Positions 11,635 to 57,922 of a DNA stretch of 64,000 bases are shown here, piece by piece. Position 1 is the first letter of the stretch. Every line of letters starts with the position of its first letter. The position numbers and the translations under genes were made by a program. Under the pieces are notes generated by a model. The model was not told where the DNA came from and searched no databases. It saw only the letters and a program-made list of their open reading frames with translations. The stretch covers positions 26,395-90,394 of the forward strand of contig CAUWGC010000004.1 of assembly GCA_963558405.1 (NCBI GenBank). Direction: 5' to 3'. The DNA is from an uncultured Clostridia bacterium. GTDB taxonomy: Bacteria; Bacillota; Clostridia; TANB77; CAG-508.

Positions 11635-11710
11635 GCGGGAATAGCTCAGTTGATAGAGCGCTGCCTTGCCAAGGCAGAGGTCGCGGGTTTGAGCCCCGTT
11701 TCCCGCTCCA
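11635..11710 (+). tRNA. tRNA-Gly (anticodon GCC)
   Basis: Cloverleaf folded by hand. Acceptor gcgggaa/ttcccgc, D arm gctc/gagc, anticodon stem ctgcc/ggcag with loop ttGCCaa, T arm gcggg/cccgt. CCA is encoded. Confidence 0.93.
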
Positions 11711-11727
11711 ATTTTTTCTTGAAAAAT

Positions 11728-11801
11728 GGCGCTATAGCCAAGTGGTAAGGCACGAGTCTGCAAAACTCTGATCCCCGGTTCAAATCCGGGTGGCGCCTCC
11801 A
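11728..11801 (+). tRNA. tRNA-Cys (anticodon GCA)
   Basis: Acceptor ggcgcta/tggcgcc (one G-U pair). Anticodon loop ctGCAaa. T loop ggttcaaatcc. CCA is encoded. Confidence 0.9.
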
Positions 11802-11997
11802 ATTTGAATAAGTTTAGACGGTTATCATAGTAAATTTAAAATATTACAGATAACCTATTTTTTGTAAATACTGAGAATTTTACATTACTTGAATAAAAAA
11901 TGATATTTGACATATTATAATTAATGTAGTATACTATATTTAGCTTATAAGCAAATTAATTTGATGTATAACATTTGTAAAATGTAACACAGAAAAA

Positions 11998-12028
11998 AGA
12001 CTAACAGGGCAAAAAGTTAGTCTTTTTT
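11998..12028. terminator. bidirectional intrinsic terminator
   Basis: Stem agactaac/gttagtct flanked by an A-run upstream and a T6 run downstream, so it works on either strand. Confidence 0.65.
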
Positions 12029-12040
12029 CAATATTAAAGA

Positions 12041-12066
12041 CTAGGAGGGCAATCCTAGCCTTTTTT
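12041..12066. terminator. second intrinsic terminator in tandem
   Basis: Stem ctagga/tcctag followed by cctttttt. Preceded by an A-run when read on the other strand. Confidence 0.55.
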
Positions 12067-12068
12067 GT

Positions 12069-12137
12069 CTAATCATCTAATTCTTTTAATATTAAAAGAA
12101 CAATGATTAATGCAATCAATTTGATGTATTTTTTCAT
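12069..12137 (-). CDS. 22-aa hydrophobic peptide (MKKYIKLIALIIVLLILKELDD); candidate small membrane peptide or type I toxin-like ORF
   Basis: Strong RBS (ggaggtg) sits 10 nt upstream of the ATG on the minus strand. A sigma-A-like promoter (TTGAAT-17-TATATT) and a GNRA-capped stem lie in the 5' leader. The stop abuts the tandem terminators. Confidence 0.35.
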   Translation of the reverse strand: MKKYIKLIALIIVLLILKELDD

Positions 12138-12429
12138 TTGTACGAGTAACACCTCCTTTCTAGCTTATTGCCGAAAGGCTATTTTAATATACAATATATT
12201 TACAGATTATTCAATAAAATTTAAAAGTTTTTCAGTATTTATTTTAAATATCTTATATCACGTTGCAGTAAAATTGCAATAAATTTAAACAGTAGACGTT
12301 CGAAACTATACAGAAATATATTTACATAATTATTTAAATATGTTAAAATATAAAAGTAAAATTTTTTTATTCTCCATTTTACAACAGGAGTTTACTATAA
12401 ATAAAAATTTATTTTGGGAGGAAAGTCTT

Positions 12430-12873
12430 ATGAAAGTAATTTTAATTATTCTCATTGTGTTGGTGTTTATCTATTTATTAGTTTCCTTTTGGGTAAAAGG
12501 AAATAATTTGGGAAGATTATACATTTTCCGGGATTGTGCAATAAGTGCAATACAAATAACAAATATAATGTTAGATCTAATCAAAGAAGACGATATAGAA
12601 AAGAGCATTTTGGAATTTTCTTCAAATCTAGAAATCTATATTGAAAATGAAGAAGAATTTGCAATGTTCAGAACTGAGAAACATGTTTTGATAATAGAAA
12701 AACCTATAAACAAAAAAATTATTTTAAATCAATTAGAGATTATAATTAATGAATCATTAAAAGATTTTGAATATATAGATTCATTAATTTATGCCGATAA
12801 TGAGTTACGTACTTTAAAAAGAGAACTAGTGGACACATTAAACAAAGTGAGAGTAACAAGGTGGCAATTATAA
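12430..12873 (+). CDS. hypothetical membrane-anchored protein
   Basis: RBS gggagga precedes ATG 12430. An N-terminal TM helix is followed by a soluble domain. No motif recognised. Confidence 0.45.
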   Translation: MKVILIILIVLVFIYLLVSFWVKGNNLGRLYIFRDCAISAIQITNIMLDLIKEDDIEKSILEFSSNLEIYIENEEEFAMFRTEKHVLIIEKPINKKIILNQLEIIINESLKDFEYIDSLIYADNELRTLKRELVDTLNKVRVTRWQL

Positions 12874-12930: not shown

Positions 12931-13123
12931 AAGTTTATAGGAAAAAGTCTTAGGGAAATACGTTAAAAACATATAATTTTACATAATAGATTGAAAAAAA
13001 CGCAAAAATGTAATATAATTGTAATGTAAGGTGTTTTTTGCATATTGCAACTTGTAAAATCTATTTCCGTAAAGGAAAGGAAAACACCTAAAAATCAATG
13101 AAAAAAACTAGAAAAAAATGTTA

Positions 13124-13152
13124 TTGACTTCTAAAAAAAAAAATACTAAAAT
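13124..13152 (+). promoter_or_regulatory. sigma-A type promoter of the DUF11 surface-protein gene (TTGACT-17-TAAAAT)
   Basis: -35 at 13124-13129, a 17-nt spacer, and -10 at 13147-13152. The ATG is about 35 nt downstream with RBS gggaggaaagg. Confidence 0.5.
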
Positions 13153-13186
13153 AAGAAATAATATAGTATGGGAGGAAAGGATTCAT

Positions 13187-16100
13187 ATGAAAAAAATAAG
13201 AAAATCATTTTTAAGTATAATTATAATAACATTATTCCTTCTTCTTTTCACAGGAATAACACAAAGCTATGCAGCAATAGCAAACCCACCAAAAAGATTT
13301 GGTGTTATTAGTGTAAGACCAAATGCGGGTTATGGTTATTTAGTAAGTGGAAATGATAAGGTATGGAAAATAGTAGAATACAACGATGCAAGCAGTAATC
13401 CAGCAGTAATAGATTATAGTAGAACAATATATTGTTTAAAACAAGGATTAGGGTTTGGATCAGGAGGAATAAGACCATTACCAGAATATTATGATACATA
13501 TTTTGATATGAAAAAAGAATATGGAACAATGCCATCAAACTATAAGTCAATGTTACCACAAAGCTATAATGAAGTATTATGGCTATTAGATAATATATAT
13601 GTAGCAGATGGAACAGAGTCAAGTAAACATGAAAGAGAAGCATTACTTGCAAAAGTATTTAAGGATGATTTAGAAGATACAGAACTATATCCACCATTTA
13701 CAATGGAAGATATAGTATTAACAGATGATGACATGGATGTAGTGCAACAGTTAGCAGTATGGTACTTTACAAATCCAGAAAATGATTATTTAAAAAATGA
13801 TGTAAATTTATTCATAAGTTCAAACGAAATGGCACAACCAAATGAATTTAAAATACTTTCTGACCGAGAATTTGATGATGAAAATGGATATATAAGATTA
13901 GAGCAAGCAAATAAATATTTTAATTATTTAAAAGAGCAAGCAAAATTAAATGCATCAAATTATGGAAGTGGAGATATAAGAGAAGATAATAGAAGACCAA
14001 TAGAACTATCAAAAAATGGAATTACAGTAAAAGAAGAAAATGGAAAGTATATAATAGGGCCATATAAAATAGAAAAAGTAACAGAAGCAGATTATACATT
14101 AAATGCAAAATTTAAAAAAGGGACAGAATCAGGAGAAGACTTTACAAATTATACATTATTAGATAAAGAACAAAAACCAACATCAAAAACAATAAATGAG
14201 CTAGTAGGAGAAAACTTTTATATATCAGTACCAACAACAGAAGAATTAGAGACATTAGTATTTACAATAGATGTAGAATACTATGTAAGAGAATTACAAT
14301 ATTGGACAGTAGGAGATGCACCATCAACAAATCAACCAATAGTAATAGTAAAAAGAATAAAGAAAAACTATTCAGACTCAGTATCAGTAACAATAAAACA
14401 ACCAGAAAAGAATTTTGATATATCATTAAGAAAATTCATAACAACAGTAAATGATAAAGAACTAAAAGATGGACAGTCAAGATATTTAAGAGAACCAATA
14501 GTAGATATAAGTAAATTAAATACAATAGTAGATGGAAGATTAATAACAACAGCAGAATATAATCATCCAAAGACACCAGTATCAGTAAAAGCAGGAGATA
14601 CAGTAGTATATACAATAAGAGTATATAACGAAGGAGAAGTAAATGGATATGCAAATGAAATAACAGACTATTTACCACCAGAGTTAGAATTCTTACCAGA
14701 TGATCCATTAAATAAACAATATGGATGGACATTAGATACAAATGATCTTTCTAACAGAACAGTAAAAACAAATTACTTATCAAAAGAAACAGAAGAAGTA
14801 CCAGGAGAACATATTTTAAAAGCTTTTACAGGAAGTAATGATAGAGCTATACTTGAATTAGACTATAAAGATGTACAAATAAAATGTAAAGTTAAAAGTG
14901 TAAGTGAAGTCAACAAAAAAATAACAAATATAGCAGAAATAACAGAATATAAAGACGAAAGTGGAAACATAGCAACAGATCGAGATTCTACTCAAGATAA
15001 TGTTATAAGACCTTCAGATAGTGATTTACCAAATTATAAAGATAATGAAATAAACAGTGGAAAGCCATATATTCCAGGACAAGAAGATGACGATGATTTT
15101 GAAAAATTAGTAATGCAAAGATTTGATATATCATTAAGAAAATTTATAACATCAGTAAATAATGAAGAATTGTTAAAAGAAGATGGAAGCTATATACGTG
15201 AACCAATAGTTGATGTAACTCCATTAAAAGAAGGAACAGGGACAACAGCAATATATAAACATACAAAAATACCAGTAGAAGTAAAAGTAGGAGATATAGT
15301 AGTATATACAATAAGAGTATATAATGAAGGAGAAGTATCAGGGTATGCAAATGAAATAATAGATCATTTACCACCAGAACTAGAATTTTTACCAAATGAT
15401 GAATTAAATAAAGAGTATGGATGGGAATTGGATGCAAGTGATCCATCAAATAGGACAATAAAAACAAAATATTTATCATATGAAACAAATCAAAAAGATA
15501 ATTTAATAGATGCATATAATAAAGACACAATGCAAACATTAGATTATAAAGAAGTAAAAGTAAAGTGTGTAGTAAAAACAACACAAGAAACAGGTAAAAA
15601 AATAACAAATATAGCAGAAATAACAGAATATAAAGATGAAAGTGGAAACATAGCAACAGATGTAGATTCAGACGCAGGAAATGTAGTATTACCAACAGAT
15701 GAAAATTTACCAAAATACAAAGATGATGAAATAAATAGTGGAAAAGAATACATACCAGGTCAAGAAGATGATGATGATTTTGAAAAATTAGTAATGAAGA
15801 AATTTGATTTATCATTAAGAAAATTTATTACATCTGTAAATGGTAAAGAATTAATAGATGAAAATGGTAAATATATACGTGAACCAATAGTTGATGTGAC
15901 TCCATTAAAAGAGGGAACAGGAACAACAGCTATATATAATCATACAAAGGTACCAGTAGGAGTTAAATCAGGAGATATTGTAATATACACAATAAGGGTA
16001 TACAACGAAGGACAGGTATCAGGATATGCAAATGAAATAGTAGATCATTTACCACCAGAACTTGAATTTATTATTAATGATGATTTAAATGCAAGTTATG

Positions 16101-18343
16101 GATGGAAATTAGATCCAAATGATGAATCTTTAAGAACAATTCGCACAAGCATTTTATCTTATGAATATGATGAAGAAGATAATCTAATTTCAGGATTTGA
16201 TAAAGATAATATGGAAACTTTAGATTATAAAGAAATTAAAGTAAAATGTAAGGTAAAAGATGTACAAGAAACTGGAAAGAAAATAACAAATATTGCAGAT
16301 ATTACAGAGTATAAAGATGAAACAGGAAATATTGCAATTGATGTTGATTCAGAATCTGTAAATGTAAAATTGCCATCAGATGAAGAACTTCCAAATTACA
16401 AAGATGATGAAATAAATAGTGGAAAAGACTATATTCCAGGACAAGAAGATGACGATGATTTTGAAAAACTAAAAATGCAACAATTTGATTTAGCATTAAG
16501 AAAATTTATTACTAAAGTAAATGATGGAGATGTAACATCAAGAATACCAGTAGTAGATGCAAGTAAGTTATATACATATGTAGACGGAAAATTAGTAACA
16601 ACTGCTACATATATACATCCAAAAGATCCAATTTTAGTTTCAAGTGGAGATACTGTGGTATATACAATAAGAGTATATAATGAAGGCGACATTGCAGGAT
16701 ATGTTAAAGAAGTAATGGATGATATTCCAGAAGGATTATTGTTCTTACCAGAAAATGATACAAATAAAGAATATCGTTGGAAAATGATAAAAGAAGATGG
16801 AACTGAAACAGATAAACCAGAAGAAGCTGTAAAAATAGTAACTGACTATTTATCAAAAGAACAAGAAAAAAATCCAGGAGAAAATTTAATACCAGGATTT
16901 GATAAATCTACTATGACAGAACCAGCATATAAAGACGTAAAAGTAGCATTTAAAGTAACAGAACCAAATTCTTCTGATAGAATTATTATTAATACAGCAG
17001 AAATCACTGATGATACAGATGAAAATGGAAACCCAGTAGAAGATATAGATTCTACACCAGATAATAATGTTCCAGAAGAAGATGATATTGATATTGAAAA
17101 AATAAAAGTTGTTGAATTTGATTTAGCATTAAGAAAATTCATAACAGGAGTAAATGACAAAGAAATAACAGATAGAGTACCACAAGTAAACATAGCAGAA
17201 GATGGAACAATATCATATTTACATACTAAAGAACCAGTAGAAGTAGTAAATGGAAATTTAGTAACATATACATTACGTGTATATAATGAAGGAACAATGA
17301 ATGGATATGCAAAAGAAATAAAAGATGATATACCAGAAGGACTAGAATTTATACCAGATAATGAAACAAATAAAGAGTATCGTTGGAAAATGTTAGGAGA
17401 AGATGGAAAAACAGAGGTAACAGATGTAAAAGAAGCAAAATATGTAGTAACAGATTATCTATCAAAAGAACAAGAAAAAGTAGACGGAGAAAATCTAATA
17501 CCAGCATTTGATAAAACAACAATGAAAGAGCCAGCATATAAAGATGTAAAGGTAATATTTAAAGTAGTAGAACCAAATACATCAGATAGAATAGTAATAA
17601 ATACAGCAGAGATATCAGATGATTCAGATGAAGATGGAAATGATGTAGTAGATAAAGATTCAGTTCCAGATAATAACAAACCAGAAGAAGATGATATAGA
17701 TATAGAAAAAGTAAAAGTAAAATACTTTGACTTAGCGCTAAAGAAATGGGTAACACAAGCAATAGTAATAGAAGATGGGAAATCAACAATAACAGAGACA
17801 GGACATACAGGAGAAGAAAACCCAGAGCCAATAGTAAAAGTAGATTTACATAGAAAAGACATAAATAAAGTAACAGTAAAATTCAAATACAAAATAAAAG
17901 TAACAAACGAAGGAGAAATAGAAGGCTATGTAAAAGAGATAACAGACCATATACCAGAAGGATTAAAATTTGTAAAAGAAGATAATCCAAAATGGGTACA
18001 AAAAGATGAAAAGACAATAACAACAGATCAATTAAAAGATACATTATTAAAACCAGGAGAAAGTGCAACAGTAGAAGTAGTGCTAACATGGATAAATGAT
18101 GGAGACAATATGGGAGTAAAAGTAAACATAGCAGAAATAAGTAAGGATTATAACGATAGTCATACACCAGATATAGATTCAACTCCAGGAAATGAAGTAC
18201 CAGGAGAAGATGACATAGATGATGCACCAGTTATGTTAACAGTTGCAGCAGGTGAAGTACCAAGTTATATAGGATTTGGAACAATAATAGTTGTAATGTT
18301 AGCAGGAGGAATATTCTTAATAAAAAAATATGTATTTGAATAA
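13187..18343 (+). CDS. giant cell-surface protein with tandem DUF11 ('conserved repeat domain', TIGR01451-like) repeats, signal peptide and C-terminal TM anchor
   Basis: Signal peptide MKKIRKSFLSIIIITLFLLLFTGITQSYAA. Six repeats of FD(I/L)(S/A)LRKFIT...G(D)xVxYTIRVYNEG.V.GYA.EI.D.LP.ELEF. The C-terminal hydrophobic segment is followed by KKYVFE. There is no LPXTG motif. The track ORF start at 13118 lacks an RBS. Confidence 0.75.
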   Translation: MKKIRKSFLSIIIITLFLLLFTGITQSYAAIANPPKRFGVISVRPNAGYGYLVSGNDKVWKIVEYNDASSNPAVIDYSRTIYCLKQGLGFGSGGIRPLPEYYDTYFDMKKEYGTMPSNYKSMLPQSYNEVLWLLDNIYVADGTESSKHEREALLAKVFKDDLEDTELYPPFTMEDIVLTDDDMDVVQQLAVWYFTNPENDYLKNDVNLFISSNEMAQPNEFKILSDREFDDENGYIRLEQANKYFNYLKEQAKLNASNYGSGDIREDNRRPIELSKNGITVKEENGKYIIGPYKIEKVTEADYTLNAKFKKGTESGEDFTNYTLLDKEQKPTSKTINELVGENFYISVPTTEELETLVFTIDVEYYVRELQYWTVGDAPSTNQPIVIVKRIKKNYSDSVSVTIKQPEKNFDISLRKFITTVNDKELKDGQSRYLREPIVDISKLNTIVDGRLITTAEYNHPKTPVSVKAGDTVVYTIRVYNEGEVNGYANEITDYLPPELEFLPDDPLNKQYGWTLDTNDLSNRTVKTNYLSKETEEVPGEHILKAFTGSNDRAILELDYKDVQIKCKVKSVSEVNKKITNIAEITEYKDESGNIATDRDSTQDNVIRPSDSDLPNYKDNEINSGKPYIPGQEDDDDFEKLVMQRFDISLRKFITSVNNEELLKEDGSYIREPIVDVTPLKEGTGTTAIYKHTKIPVEVKVGDIVVYTIRVYNEGEVSGYANEIIDHLPPELEFLPNDELNKEYGWELDASDPSNRTIKTKYLSYETNQKDNLIDAYNKDTMQTLDYKEVKVKCVVKTTQETGKKITNIAEITEYKDESGNIATDVDSDAGNVVLPTDENLPKYKDDEINSGKEYIPGQEDDDDFEKLVMKKFDLSLRKFITSVNGKELIDENGKYIREPIVDVTPLKEGTGTTAIYNHTKVPVGVKSGDIVIYTIRVYNEGQVSGYANEIVDHLPPELEFIINDDLNASYGWKLDPNDESLRTIRTSILSYEYDEEDNLISGFDKDNMETLDYKEIKVKCKVKDVQETGKKITNIADITEYKDETGNIAIDVDSESVNVKLPSDEELPNYKDDEINSGKDYIPGQEDDDDFEKLKMQQFDLALRKFITKVNDGDVTSRIPVVDASKLYTYVDGKLVTTATYIHPKDPILVSSGDTVVYTIRVYNEGDIAGYVKEVMDDIPEGLLFLPENDTNKEYRWKMIKEDGTETDKPEEAVKIVTDYLSKEQEKNPGENLIPGFDKSTMTEPAYKDVKVAFKVTEPNSSDRIIINTAEITDDTDENGNPVEDIDSTPDNNVPEEDDIDIEKIKVVEFDLALRKFITGVNDKEITDRVPQVNIAEDGTISYLHTKEPVEVVNGNLVTYTLRVYNEGTMNGYAKEIKDDIPEGLEFIPDNETNKEYRWKMLGEDGKTEVTDVKEAKYVVTDYLSKEQEKVDGENLIPAFDKTTMKEPAYKDVKVIFKVVEPNTSDRIVINTAEISDDSDEDGNDVVDKDSVPDNNKPEEDDIDIEKVKVKYFDLALKKWVTQAIVIEDGKSTITETGHTGEENPEPIVKVDLHRKDINKVTVKFKYKIKVTNEGEIEGYVKEITDHIPEGLKFVKEDNPKWVQKDEKTITTDQLKDTLLKPGESATVEVVLTWINDGDNMGVKVNIAEISKDYNDSHTPDIDSTPGNEVPGEDDIDDAPVMLTVAAGEVPSYIGFGTIIVVMLAGGIFLIKKYVFE
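14414..17725 (+). repeat. five in-frame tandem repeat units (708, 681, 681, 633, 609 nt) inside the surface-protein gene; a sixth divergent unit begins at 17726
   Basis: Unit starts at 14414, 15122, 15803, 16484, 17117 and 17726 were located by the recurring FD(I/L)(S/A)LRKFIT motif. Units 1-3 and units 4-5 form two subtypes. Confidence 0.75.
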
Positions 18344-57187: not shown

Positions 57188-57922
57188 ATGTCAAAAAATA
57201 AAATAGCTGTTATTTTAGGAATAGTATGTATAATTTTAACTTTTTCAATATGTATGCAATTAAAAACAATAAAAAATATAGGTTCTCCTTCAGAAGTATC
57301 TTTTCAAGAAAATGAATTAAGAGATGAAGTACTAAGATTAAAAGAAAAATACGATAATTTATATAATGAGCTAGAAAAAGCAGAAGAAAAGCTTGAAAAA
57401 GTTAGAGAACAAGCAACACAAAATACTTCTGATTCAGCACAAATAGAAGAAGAAATAAAACTAAATAATACATTATTAGGATTAACAGATGTAACAGGAG
57501 AAGGTGTTATTATAACACTAAAAGATAATCCAAATGTTACATTAGATTCATTAAGGGACTCGTTAAGTTCTTCTGTTAATACATATATTGTACATGACGA
57601 AGATTTAAGAATGATTGTTAATGAGTTAAAAAATTCTGGTGCAGAAGCTATATCAATAAATGGAGAAAGAATTTTATTTAATACTCCTATTACTTGTATA
57701 GGAACAGTTATACAAGTAAATAATAAAAGATTAAATTCTCCATATATAATTAAAGCAATAGGAAATCAAGACACATTAAATGCAGTAGATAGATTAGGAA
57801 GTTATATTGATTATTATATAAAACCTTATGTAGGATTTAGCATGAATAAATCAAATAATATAGAAATACCAAAATATACAGGCGTATATAATCCAAAATA
57901 TATTCAGCCAGTAACAGATTAA
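57188..57922 (+). CDS. DUF881 family protein (YlxW-like)
   Basis: N-terminal TM, coiled coil, then GEGVIITLKD ... EAISINGERI. This is the position of ylxW in the Bacillus dcw tail. Confidence 0.75.
   Translation: MSKNKIAVILGIVCIILTFSICMQLKTIKNIGSPSEVSFQENELRDEVLRLKEKYDNLYNELEKAEEKLEKVREQATQNTSDSAQIEEEIKLNNTLLGLTDVTGEGVIITLKDNPNVTLDSLRDSLSSSVNTYIVHDEDLRMIVNELKNSGAEAISINGERILFNTPITCIGTVIQVNNKRLNSPYIIKAIGNQDTLNAVDRLGSYIDYYIKPYVGFSMNKSNNIEIPKYTGVYNPKYIQPVTD

Follow-up and report, generated by a model that had tools for sequence, protein, structure and literature searches.

A probable type I toxin–antitoxin cassette with par/Fst-type RNA architecture beside a tRNA pair in an uncultured gut Clostridia bacterium

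Does a 22-codon open reading frame (ORF) that lies beside two tRNA genes in an uncultured Clostridia bacterium encode a real peptide, and to what kind of system would such a peptide belong? The ORF sits in a 64,000-nucleotide stretch of DNA (contig CAUWGC010000004.1 of assembly GCA_963558405.1, positions 26,395 to 90,394 of the forward strand), analysed here as a whole and called the window; all coordinates below are window positions. An earlier note on this DNA had proposed that the ORF is a genuine gene for a small membrane-active peptide, possibly a type I toxin resembling Fst. Sequence comparisons indicate that the ORF is one half of a unit of about 330 bp in which it faces a predicted small RNA (sRNA) gene, and we are highly confident that this is a real, conserved, convergent sRNA/small-ORF antisense cassette. 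That the self-contained cassette is a type I toxin–antitoxin pair with an RNA architecture of the par/Fst type is, in our judgement, probable, although here our confidence is clearly lower.

The ORF occupies positions 12069–12137 of the minus strand, just where the earlier note had placed it, with an ATG at 12137, its last codon at 12072 and a TAG stop at 12071–12069, and it translates to MKKYIKLIALIIVLLILKELDD. This peptide has a basic N-terminus (MKK...), an aliphatic core of 11–14 residues and an acidic KELDD tail; its grand average of hydropathy (GRAVY) is 1.17, and core residues 7–17 average 3.9. We did not find the exact string in the searchable literature. Within the ORF, a perfect 20-nt palindrome, TTCTTTTAATATTAAAAGAA (12081–12100, codons 13–19), forms the core of a hairpin of about 19 bp that covers codons 9–22 and the stop codon.

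By itself, a 22-codon ORF is ordinary here. The region is 74% A+T and the DNA 26% G+C, short hydrophobic ORFs are frequent, and we counted 51 ORFs of at least 20 amino acids, overlapping 4.5 kb. A promoter scan of the region returned 25 promoter-like sites against 12.5 in shuffled sequence. These figures would suit an ORF that arose by chance where the tRNA-Gly/tRNA-Cys operon terminates, with hairpins that end the tRNA transcript and promoters that are AT-rich noise. Such an origin fits poorly with the translation signal: GGAGG stands 5–18 nt before an ATG-started ORF of 15–40 amino acids in just two cases in the window. One is the 22-codon ORF. The other, a 30-amino-acid ORF at 40943, is out of frame within the gene for a 2735-amino-acid protein (38845–47052, plus strand) and is spurious, so that the 22-codon ORF is the sole intergenic short ORF of the window preceded by a Shine-Dalgarno (SD) sequence.

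That SD is an extended one, GAAAGGAGGUG, at 12150–12160 of the minus strand: an 11-nt perfect match, written as DNA GAAAGGAGGTG, which contains ggaggtg. It is preceded by a sigma-70-like promoter, TTGAAT-17-TATATT (12186–12214, minus strand), with a scan score of 9/12. Both elements had been recognised before, and their positions need small corrections, the promoter lying at 12214–12186, about 6 nt below the 12220–12192 given previously, and ggaggtg ending 12 nt rather than 10 nt before the ATG. A GTG at 12152, which would start a version of 27 amino acids, was ruled out as the start codon; it falls within the SD and is not itself preceded by one. In the predicted leader, the favoured fold is a hairpin with a 9-bp stem, CCUUUCGGC-aauaa-GCU(A)GAAAGG (12155–12178, minus strand), beginning 2–3 nt from the predicted 5' end. 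Its GAAAGG arm includes two guanines at the start of GGAGG and so covers the SD in its 5' half. The earlier description of a GNRA-capped leader hairpin resulted from a strand slip: the loop reads UUUC on the transcribed strand, and GAAA occurs on the opposite strand only. As a whole, the predicted toxin mRNA folds with z = -6.3.

The earlier note overlooked the gene that faces the ORF and that lies partly outside the coordinates it had considered (11995–12235). Between tRNA-Cys and the terminator hairpins, and convergent with the toxin promoter, stands the plus-strand promoter TTGACA-17-TATACT (11907–11935), whose scan score of 11/12 is the best promoter match of the region. With the 5' end placed from the -10 box, it would direct the synthesis of an antitoxin-like sRNA whose short form spans 11942–12030 (plus strand). 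This predicted RNA would be about 90 nt long if it ends after the first terminator hairpin, or about 125 nt if transcription reads through to the second and ends at about 12068. It folds with -21.1 kcal/mol (z = -4.1), its body is nearly invariant in 10 copies from related loci, and it holds no SD-preceded ORF. Searched at the gathering score, Rfam 15 yielded two tRNAs only in the window and no sRNA family; a search of 11800–12440 at E <= 10 gave sub-threshold chance matches only (sagA, csRNA, IS605-orfB-II and MIR169_2). We take this putative antisense partner as decisive extra support for the earlier reading.

Antisense action is suggested by two direct repeats (DRs). The single-stranded 5' part of the predicted sRNA carries DR-A, GCAAATTAATTTGATGTATAACATTTGTAAAATGTAACAC (11951–11990, plus strand), an imperfect direct repeat of DR-B, GCAATCAATTTGATGTATTTTTTCATTTGTACGAGTAACAC (12112–12152, minus strand), which corresponds to the translation start of the toxin mRNA and takes in the SD's 3' edge, the spacer, the AUG and the first nine to ten codons. 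Because DR-A repeats the antisense of this region, the sRNA can pair there in blocks of 18, 8 and 7 bp that together run from the SD's 3' edge to codon 10. We computed -35.8 kcal/mol for this duplex against -13.3 +/- 2.8 kcal/mol for 2000 dinucleotide shuffles of the sRNA segment, none of which (0/2000) did as well (z = -8). Only one of 4708 other 54-mers of the window pairs as well, and it is a generic anti-SD sequence at 57899. In four other copies of the cassette, the cognate duplexes reach -35.7 to -36.5 kcal/mol.

The two predicted transcripts also share their 3' ends, where the two tandem terminators named in the earlier note are indeed found. Terminator 1 (AAAAAAGACTAAC-loop-GTTAGTCTTTTTT, 11993–12028, both strands) was recognised by folding, and was overlooked by the promoter/terminator scan because its loop is 10 nt long. 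Terminator 2 (CTAGGA-gggcaa-TCCTAG plus a T-run, 12039–12066, both strands) was returned by the scan at 12041–12058 and is a 40-nt tandem duplicate of terminator 1. Both hairpins are flanked by A-runs and T-runs, and should therefore be able to terminate transcription in both directions. They fold in both RNAs, and the shared part amounts to 40–80 nt of perfect 3' complementarity.

To see how far this arrangement is conserved, we compared the window with related loci (numbered with an L), all of them from metagenome assemblies. Copies were gathered via contigs anchored on homologues of the neighbouring D-Ala-D-Ala carboxypeptidase (Dac), via a neighbouring small ORF that we call ORF-X, and via a metagenome scan for the leader hairpin; this last pattern found L141–L144, and a strict sRNA pattern applied to metagenomes found nothing. 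The block of about 330 bp recurs in other uncultured Clostridia at 79–93% DNA identity. Intact cassettes are present in L113, L117 and L119 (92–93% identical to the window) and in L129 (92%), which represent at least three lineages besides that of the window, and also in L141 and L142; L115 holds a partial copy (90%). Identical DNA also occurs in several ENA and Logan metagenome contigs, in none of which is the 22-codon ORF called as a gene. Among species-representative genomes the best Dac homologues are 50–57% identical, and a relic of the cassette is present just in L010. The window itself contains no second copy that we could find. BLAST of the cassette against plasmid and phage collections gave no match, scans of viral contigs with four patterns gave nothing or four 18-mer matches presumed to be chance, and a loose motif search for the 5' leader of the sRNA was uninformative, with mostly chance matches.

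Conservation is confined to the block. Inside it, the SD, the leader hairpin and the hexamers of the sRNA promoter show no variation (0%), and variable positions make up 5% of DR-A and 7–8% of the ORF. Outside it, 92% of the 13 columns left of the A-rich stretch that precedes the sRNA -35 vary, and variability beyond the toxin -35 is 56%. The SD GAAAGGAGGUG is unchanged in all eight copies that retain one (8/8), and also in the relic L139. All copies that include the region (the window, L113, L117, L129, L142, L144, L122 and L093) have the same sRNA promoter hexamers, and the sequence about 15 nt upstream of that promoter is unrelated among copies. Each hexamer of the toxin promoter varies at 1 of 6 positions (17%) and the 17-nt spacing is kept, with 41% of the spacer variable. 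The stem of terminator 1 is kept, one A-U pair having become G-U in L093; the number of terminator units varies, L122, L100 and L143 having a single one. As conservation ends at the two promoters, the pattern is that expected of one functional unit made up of the promoters and everything between them.

The tRNA-Gly(GCC) and tRNA-Cys(GCA) genes (11635–11801, plus strand) are neighbours outside this unit. L113, L117 and L129 likewise have the cassette downstream of this tRNA pair; in L122 and L141–L144 it lies elsewhere, and the neighbourhood is therefore not obligatory. A block kept at 79–93% identity in lineages whose neighbouring proteins are 54% identical, and kept also away from tRNAs, is hard to reconcile with an accident of the tRNA terminator region. 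So are a conservation that stops at the promoters, and a duplex with z = -8. In our view the related loci have effectively refuted the chance-ORF explanation, to which we give almost no credence, and the earlier claim that the ORF is real rather than random is borne out.

Pairing between the predicted RNAs is itself conserved. At the base pair adjoining the AUG, the window, L113, L117 and L144 have CAUUUGUA/UACAAAUG, and L129, L141 and L142 have CAUUUGUG/CACAAAUG, an A-U to G-C exchange; in L143 and L093, both of them decayed copies, the two bases do not match. The remaining differences between sRNA and mRNA are changes from A-U to G-U or the reverse. The position is ambiguous in the alignment (insertion of a G or an A-to-G substitution), and the duplexes were folded copy by copy. 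This covariation amounts to one compensatory event and is supportive but thin. The leader hairpin, being invariant in all copies, gives no covariation evidence.

Stronger support for the antisense design comes from a sister cassette, sRNA-X/ORF-X. It has the same convergent layout and a shared terminator, with a TTGACA-17-TATTAT/TATCAT promoter, and the 5' part of its predicted sRNA repeats the antisense of the SD, the AUG and the first codons of ORF-X. We located it at L010:7800–8130, L016:7640–7990 (minus strand) and L093:6560–6975, and also in L113, L122 and L129–L131, beside a gene for 41–42 amino acids at about 2501–2629. The initiation regions of ORF-X in L010 and L016 are entirely different in sequence, and each sRNA matches its own. 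Cognate duplexes reach -32 to -36 kcal/mol, as against -13 to -20 kcal/mol for non-cognate combinations, including those with the window sRNA. The ORF-X product is a hydrophilic helical peptide of 33–42 amino acids, for example MTNAELILQLVDKLLKQKEEIETLKSMKANTKDEKNKVNDT, with no match in Pfam, NCBIfam or PHROGs. The RNA design is thus common to at least two unrelated cargoes, this one and the aliphatic peptide of 22 residues. The sRNA of L016 begins with the same ATATTTAGCTTAAGCAAAT as the window sRNA, and in one case the two cargoes share the sRNA 5' leader ATATTTAGCTTA(TA)AGCAAAT.

If the cassette is real, is the peptide real as well? The locus could instead consist of two convergent non-coding RNAs, with the 22-codon frame incidental and open only through RNA constraint. 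In favour of this, the entire ORF is under such constraint, codons 1–10 through pairing with the sRNA and codons 9–22 through the hairpin; the ORF is no better conserved than the non-coding parts (5–8% variable); and the spacing between SD and AUG is long. Several observations speak for a coding role. An invariant 11-nt perfect SD and an AUG are found exactly in the region that the sRNA would mask, and wherever both promoters are kept the frame is open too. L113, L115, L117 and L119 encode exactly the window's peptide in spite of two synonymous changes; elsewhere it differs by I8V and V13I (L129), K6N and V13I (L141) or V13I (L142). All replacements in intact copies are therefore exchanges between I and V or K to N, conservative or in the polar flank. 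In the intra-ORF hairpin the stem is invariant, and just two positions of the 6-nt loop vary, both of them synonymous third positions. The earlier note had named a bias towards synonymous substitution in relatives as the test of its reading, and the bias is there, if weakly: intact copies show three replacements (I8V, V13I and K6N) and at least four synonymous events (one each at codons 7 and 15, two at codon 16), where 19.6% of sites are synonymous (binomial P = 0.03). Disruptive changes (L10E, a frameshift, truncations) occur just in copies that have other lesions. The composition of the peptide also fits the general description of type I toxins (PMC6563280) in its length of 22 residues, its GRAVY of 1.17 and its KELDD tail, its hydrophobic run of 11–14 being short. 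We consider a purely non-coding pair distinctly improbable.

The peptide is also what decay removes first. In L122, L123 and L126, a deletion removed the start codon, the SD, the leader and the -10 box, and the sRNA gene was kept. L093 has an intact sRNA gene (91% identity) and an ORF reduced to a short 5' fragment. L144 retains its sRNA gene but has two substitutions in the peptide, L10E and L20F, and another sequence in place of the toxin -35. A single nucleotide is missing from the A6 run of L143, which represents either a real frameshift or an assembly error. Other copies have lost both halves. In L139 the sRNA is gone, the ORF is truncated to 11 residues (MKKYRQFSNQL) and the spacer of the toxin promoter is cut to 7 nt; in L100, which belongs to the window's own species (99% Dac identity), three deletions between short repeats left neither promoter and only the 3' half of the ORF. 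At no locus recovered did we see an intact toxin gene with a demonstrably lost or damaged sRNA gene, although L115, L119 and L141 end upstream, so that their sRNA genes or promoters are visible only in part. Such an asymmetry, with the toxin lost first, is what a toxin–antitoxin pair predicts.

A further set of copies, which we call type 2, retains the sRNA body, both terminators and the last 12–18 codons or so (...ITLVIVLLIFNKIDN), at 84–86% identity to the window. Type 2 copies lie at L010:8258–8416 and in L112–L121 (for example L116:2182–2350); one lineage (L010) has the sequence fixed directly upstream of ORF-X, and some of the contigs also bear an intact type 1 cassette about 1 kb off. 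We considered type 2 as an intact paralogue that had diverged, and rejected the idea: start codon, SD and toxin promoter are all missing, no convincing sRNA promoter could be identified, and the sequence is a promoter-less relic.

A harder question is whether the peptide is a toxin. An antisense-regulated, non-toxic small membrane protein, for instance one that regulates or forms part of a membrane complex, or that acts in stress or sporulation, with the sRNA tuning its synthesis, would account equally well for all of the evidence at the RNA level. Pfam, NCBIfam and PHROGs reveal no homology between the peptide and any toxin, and the same layout in the ORF-X cassette, serving a hydrophilic peptide of 33–42 residues, would suggest that it is a general regulatory design in this clade. 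What tells against such a protein is the distribution of the cassette. It is present or absent within one species (L111 versus L100; L113 versus L112; L129 versus L130 and L131), it occurs at unrelated positions, including places away from any tRNA (L122 and L141–L144), and it has 92% DNA identity between lineages whose housekeeping protein, in the case of L113 the Dac protein, is only 54% identical to that of the window. Patchiness, unrelated positions and excess similarity therefore point to a dispensable selfish module rather than a subunit tied to a particular partner. Nor is there a conserved gene nearby that could be such a partner, and, as noted, it is the peptide that decays first. On balance we hold the non-toxic alternative to be unlikely, albeit the most serious of those considered.

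A toxin–antitoxin pair could work as follows. The moderate minus-strand promoter (12214–12186) would give a toxin mRNA of about 190 nt (from about 12180 to about 11990), whose 5' hairpin would hide half of a very strong SD, and the near-consensus plus-strand promoter would yield an abundant convergent sRNA. Pairing would start via the complementary terminator hairpins and then extend through DR-A and DR-B, so as to mask the SD fully and block ribosome binding. Given an sRNA less stable than the mRNA, as expected of a type I pair, the ORF would be translated into its peptide of 22 residues only on a drop in the sRNA level, and the peptide would insert into the membrane and arrest growth.

A number of points weigh against this scheme. 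On the peptide side, MKKYIKLIALIIVLLILKELDD is shorter, at 22 residues, than any toxin of the Fst family (Fst-pAD1 has 33); its longest unbroken hydrophobic stretch is 11 residues; it contains neither Pro nor Gly and hence no Fst PXXXG motif; and it has no family match in Pfam (E <= 10), NCBIfam or PHROGs. At the RNA level, the gap to the AUG is 12 nt after GGAGGUG and 14 nt after GGAGG, longer than optimal, and the fold of the 54-nt leader, at -10.4 kcal/mol, barely beats its shuffles (z = -1.7). Comparative evidence drawn from metagenome assemblies alone has its own weaknesses. Intact copies differ by 8% or less and so offer few independent substitutions; the synonymous test is confounded, since codons 1–10 pair with the sRNA and codons 9–22 form a hairpin; the L143 frameshift is possibly an assembly artefact; and the decay asymmetry comprises 3–4 independent events and is not statistically significant. 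Finally, the layout need not imply a membrane toxin, because the sister cassette encodes a hydrophilic peptide.

How might such a cassette come to be so patchily distributed? Variation is concentrated in the 3' flank of tRNA-Cys, a hot spot whose content differs among strains of one species (L093/L094/L095, L112/L113 and L129/L130/L131). Our observations of it are from window positions 11802–11890 and 12262–12320, from L016:7400–7530 (minus strand) and from L129 downstream of ORF-X. Pseudo-tRNA-Cys 3' ends (...gtcgcctcca, then atttgaataa) recur at cassette junctions, and a conserved element with the hairpin GTTGCAGTAAAATTGCAATAAATTT forms the right edge of the hot spot, even in loci that have no cassette. 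We found no recombinase near the hot spot, and no integrase, phage or plasmid genes beside L141, L142 and L144. Just downstream of tRNA-Cys there is also a conserved hairpin, GGTTATC-(24 nt)-GATAACC (11822–11858), followed in the window by a T-run; L016 keeps the hairpin and not the T-run. It may be the tRNA operon's own terminator. Contigs tend to break in or at the cassette, with L114, L115 and L119 ending and L142 and L143 starting there, as might be expected if the sequence existed in several copies or were common to co-occurring strains. Nearby genes include a plus-strand ORF (13118–18343) for a repetitive surface protein of 1741 amino acids with weak CLIPPER-domain matches, which is conserved beside the hot spot in relatives, and one for a downstream protein of 147 amino acids, an orphan with one cluster only.

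We would venture, tentatively, that the cassette belongs to a family of miniature, recombinase-less sRNA/peptide cassettes that genera of uncultured gut Clostridia gain, lose, stack and exchange with one another, with a preference for the tRNA-Cys 3' flank. If so, the par-type antisense design would be a modular chassis for varied small-protein cargoes, not all of them membrane toxins, and the sister cassette and the hot spot raise the question of how modules without a recombinase move. The toxin–antitoxin reading, for its part, would place the par/Fst regulatory design in abundant uncultured gut Clostridia, together with an unrelated predicted toxin whose 22 residues are at the lower size limit for a membrane-active peptide. 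Being compact (about 330 bp) and made of clear parts, the cassette is directly testable by synthesis, and its natural variants are ready controls: L10E, the frameshift, the start-less and sRNA-only copies, and the A-U/G-C pair.

The closest known counterpart is the par locus of Enterococcus faecalis pAD1 (RNA I/RNA II). Loci like par are characterised by convergent promoters, a bidirectional intrinsic terminator, direct repeats that provide complementarity over the initiation site, and intramolecular structures that sequester the SD (5'-SL) and the extreme 5' end (5'-UH); toxins of the Fst/Ldr type combine charge at the N-terminus with a hydrophobic helix, in which a PXXXG motif is essential, and with a C-terminal tail that is again charged (PMC7472228). 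The cassette resembles par of pAD1 in its convergent promoters and shared bidirectional terminator, in direct-repeat complementarity that covers the toxin initiation site, in a size of a few hundred base pairs, in a peptide with a charged N-terminus, a hydrophobic helix and an acidic C-terminal tail, and plausibly also in a 5' stem-loop of the toxin mRNA that involves the SD (predicted and conserved, z = -1.7). It differs in that the terminator is tandemly duplicated, the complementarity comes in three blocks and reaches into the SD, the predicted sRNA is about 90–125 nt long rather than about 40 nt as in RNA II, the peptide's tail has 5 residues rather than about 11 as in Fst-pAD1, and the host is an uncultured gut clostridial lineage. 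Thus the Fst-like type I toxin suggested in the earlier note finds support, at the level of sequence, in the par/Fst arrangement of the antisense partner, but not as a sequence member of the Fst family, since the peptide has no PXXXG and no Pfam or NCBIfam match.

Shortness of this order has a precedent in ibs/Sib of Escherichia coli, with toxins of 18–19 amino acids, which are to our knowledge the shortest of any type I system. As in that family (listed in PMC2887945), the peptide of the cassette is very short, almost purely aliphatic and missed by ORF callers, and the loci are multi-copy or variable and intergenic. Sib RNAs, by contrast, are fully overlapping cis-antisense RNAs of a Gram-negative host, with no shared-terminator/direct-repeat design, and there is no sequence similarity. 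Closer in host are the bsrG/SR4 and txpA/RatA systems of Bacillus subtilis (PMC3834814), which are likewise convergent mRNA/sRNA pairs that overlap at their 3' ends in a Firmicute; their interaction starts and acts at the 3' overlap, without 5' direct-repeat pairing, and their toxins have 38–59 amino acids.

Within the class Clostridia, nearly all that is known of type I systems comes from C. difficile; elsewhere, searches by homology turned up next to nothing (PMC6563280). The C. difficile modules (CD2517.1-RCd8, CD0956.2-RCd10 and others) share with the cassette a convergent antisense pair and a small hydrophobic toxin missed by gene callers. Their toxins have 34–59 amino acids and Lys-rich C-termini (PMC6563280, PMC5961336), the antitoxin overlaps the toxin gene directly rather than acting via 5' direct repeats, and the modules are tied to CRISPR arrays and prophages, none of which we saw beside the cassette. 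A type I toxin–antitoxin pair is a kind of system already well known. What would be new, judging from these comparisons, is the predicted toxin family, its extreme shortness, the host clade, the hydrophilic sister cargo and the tRNA-Cys hot spot.

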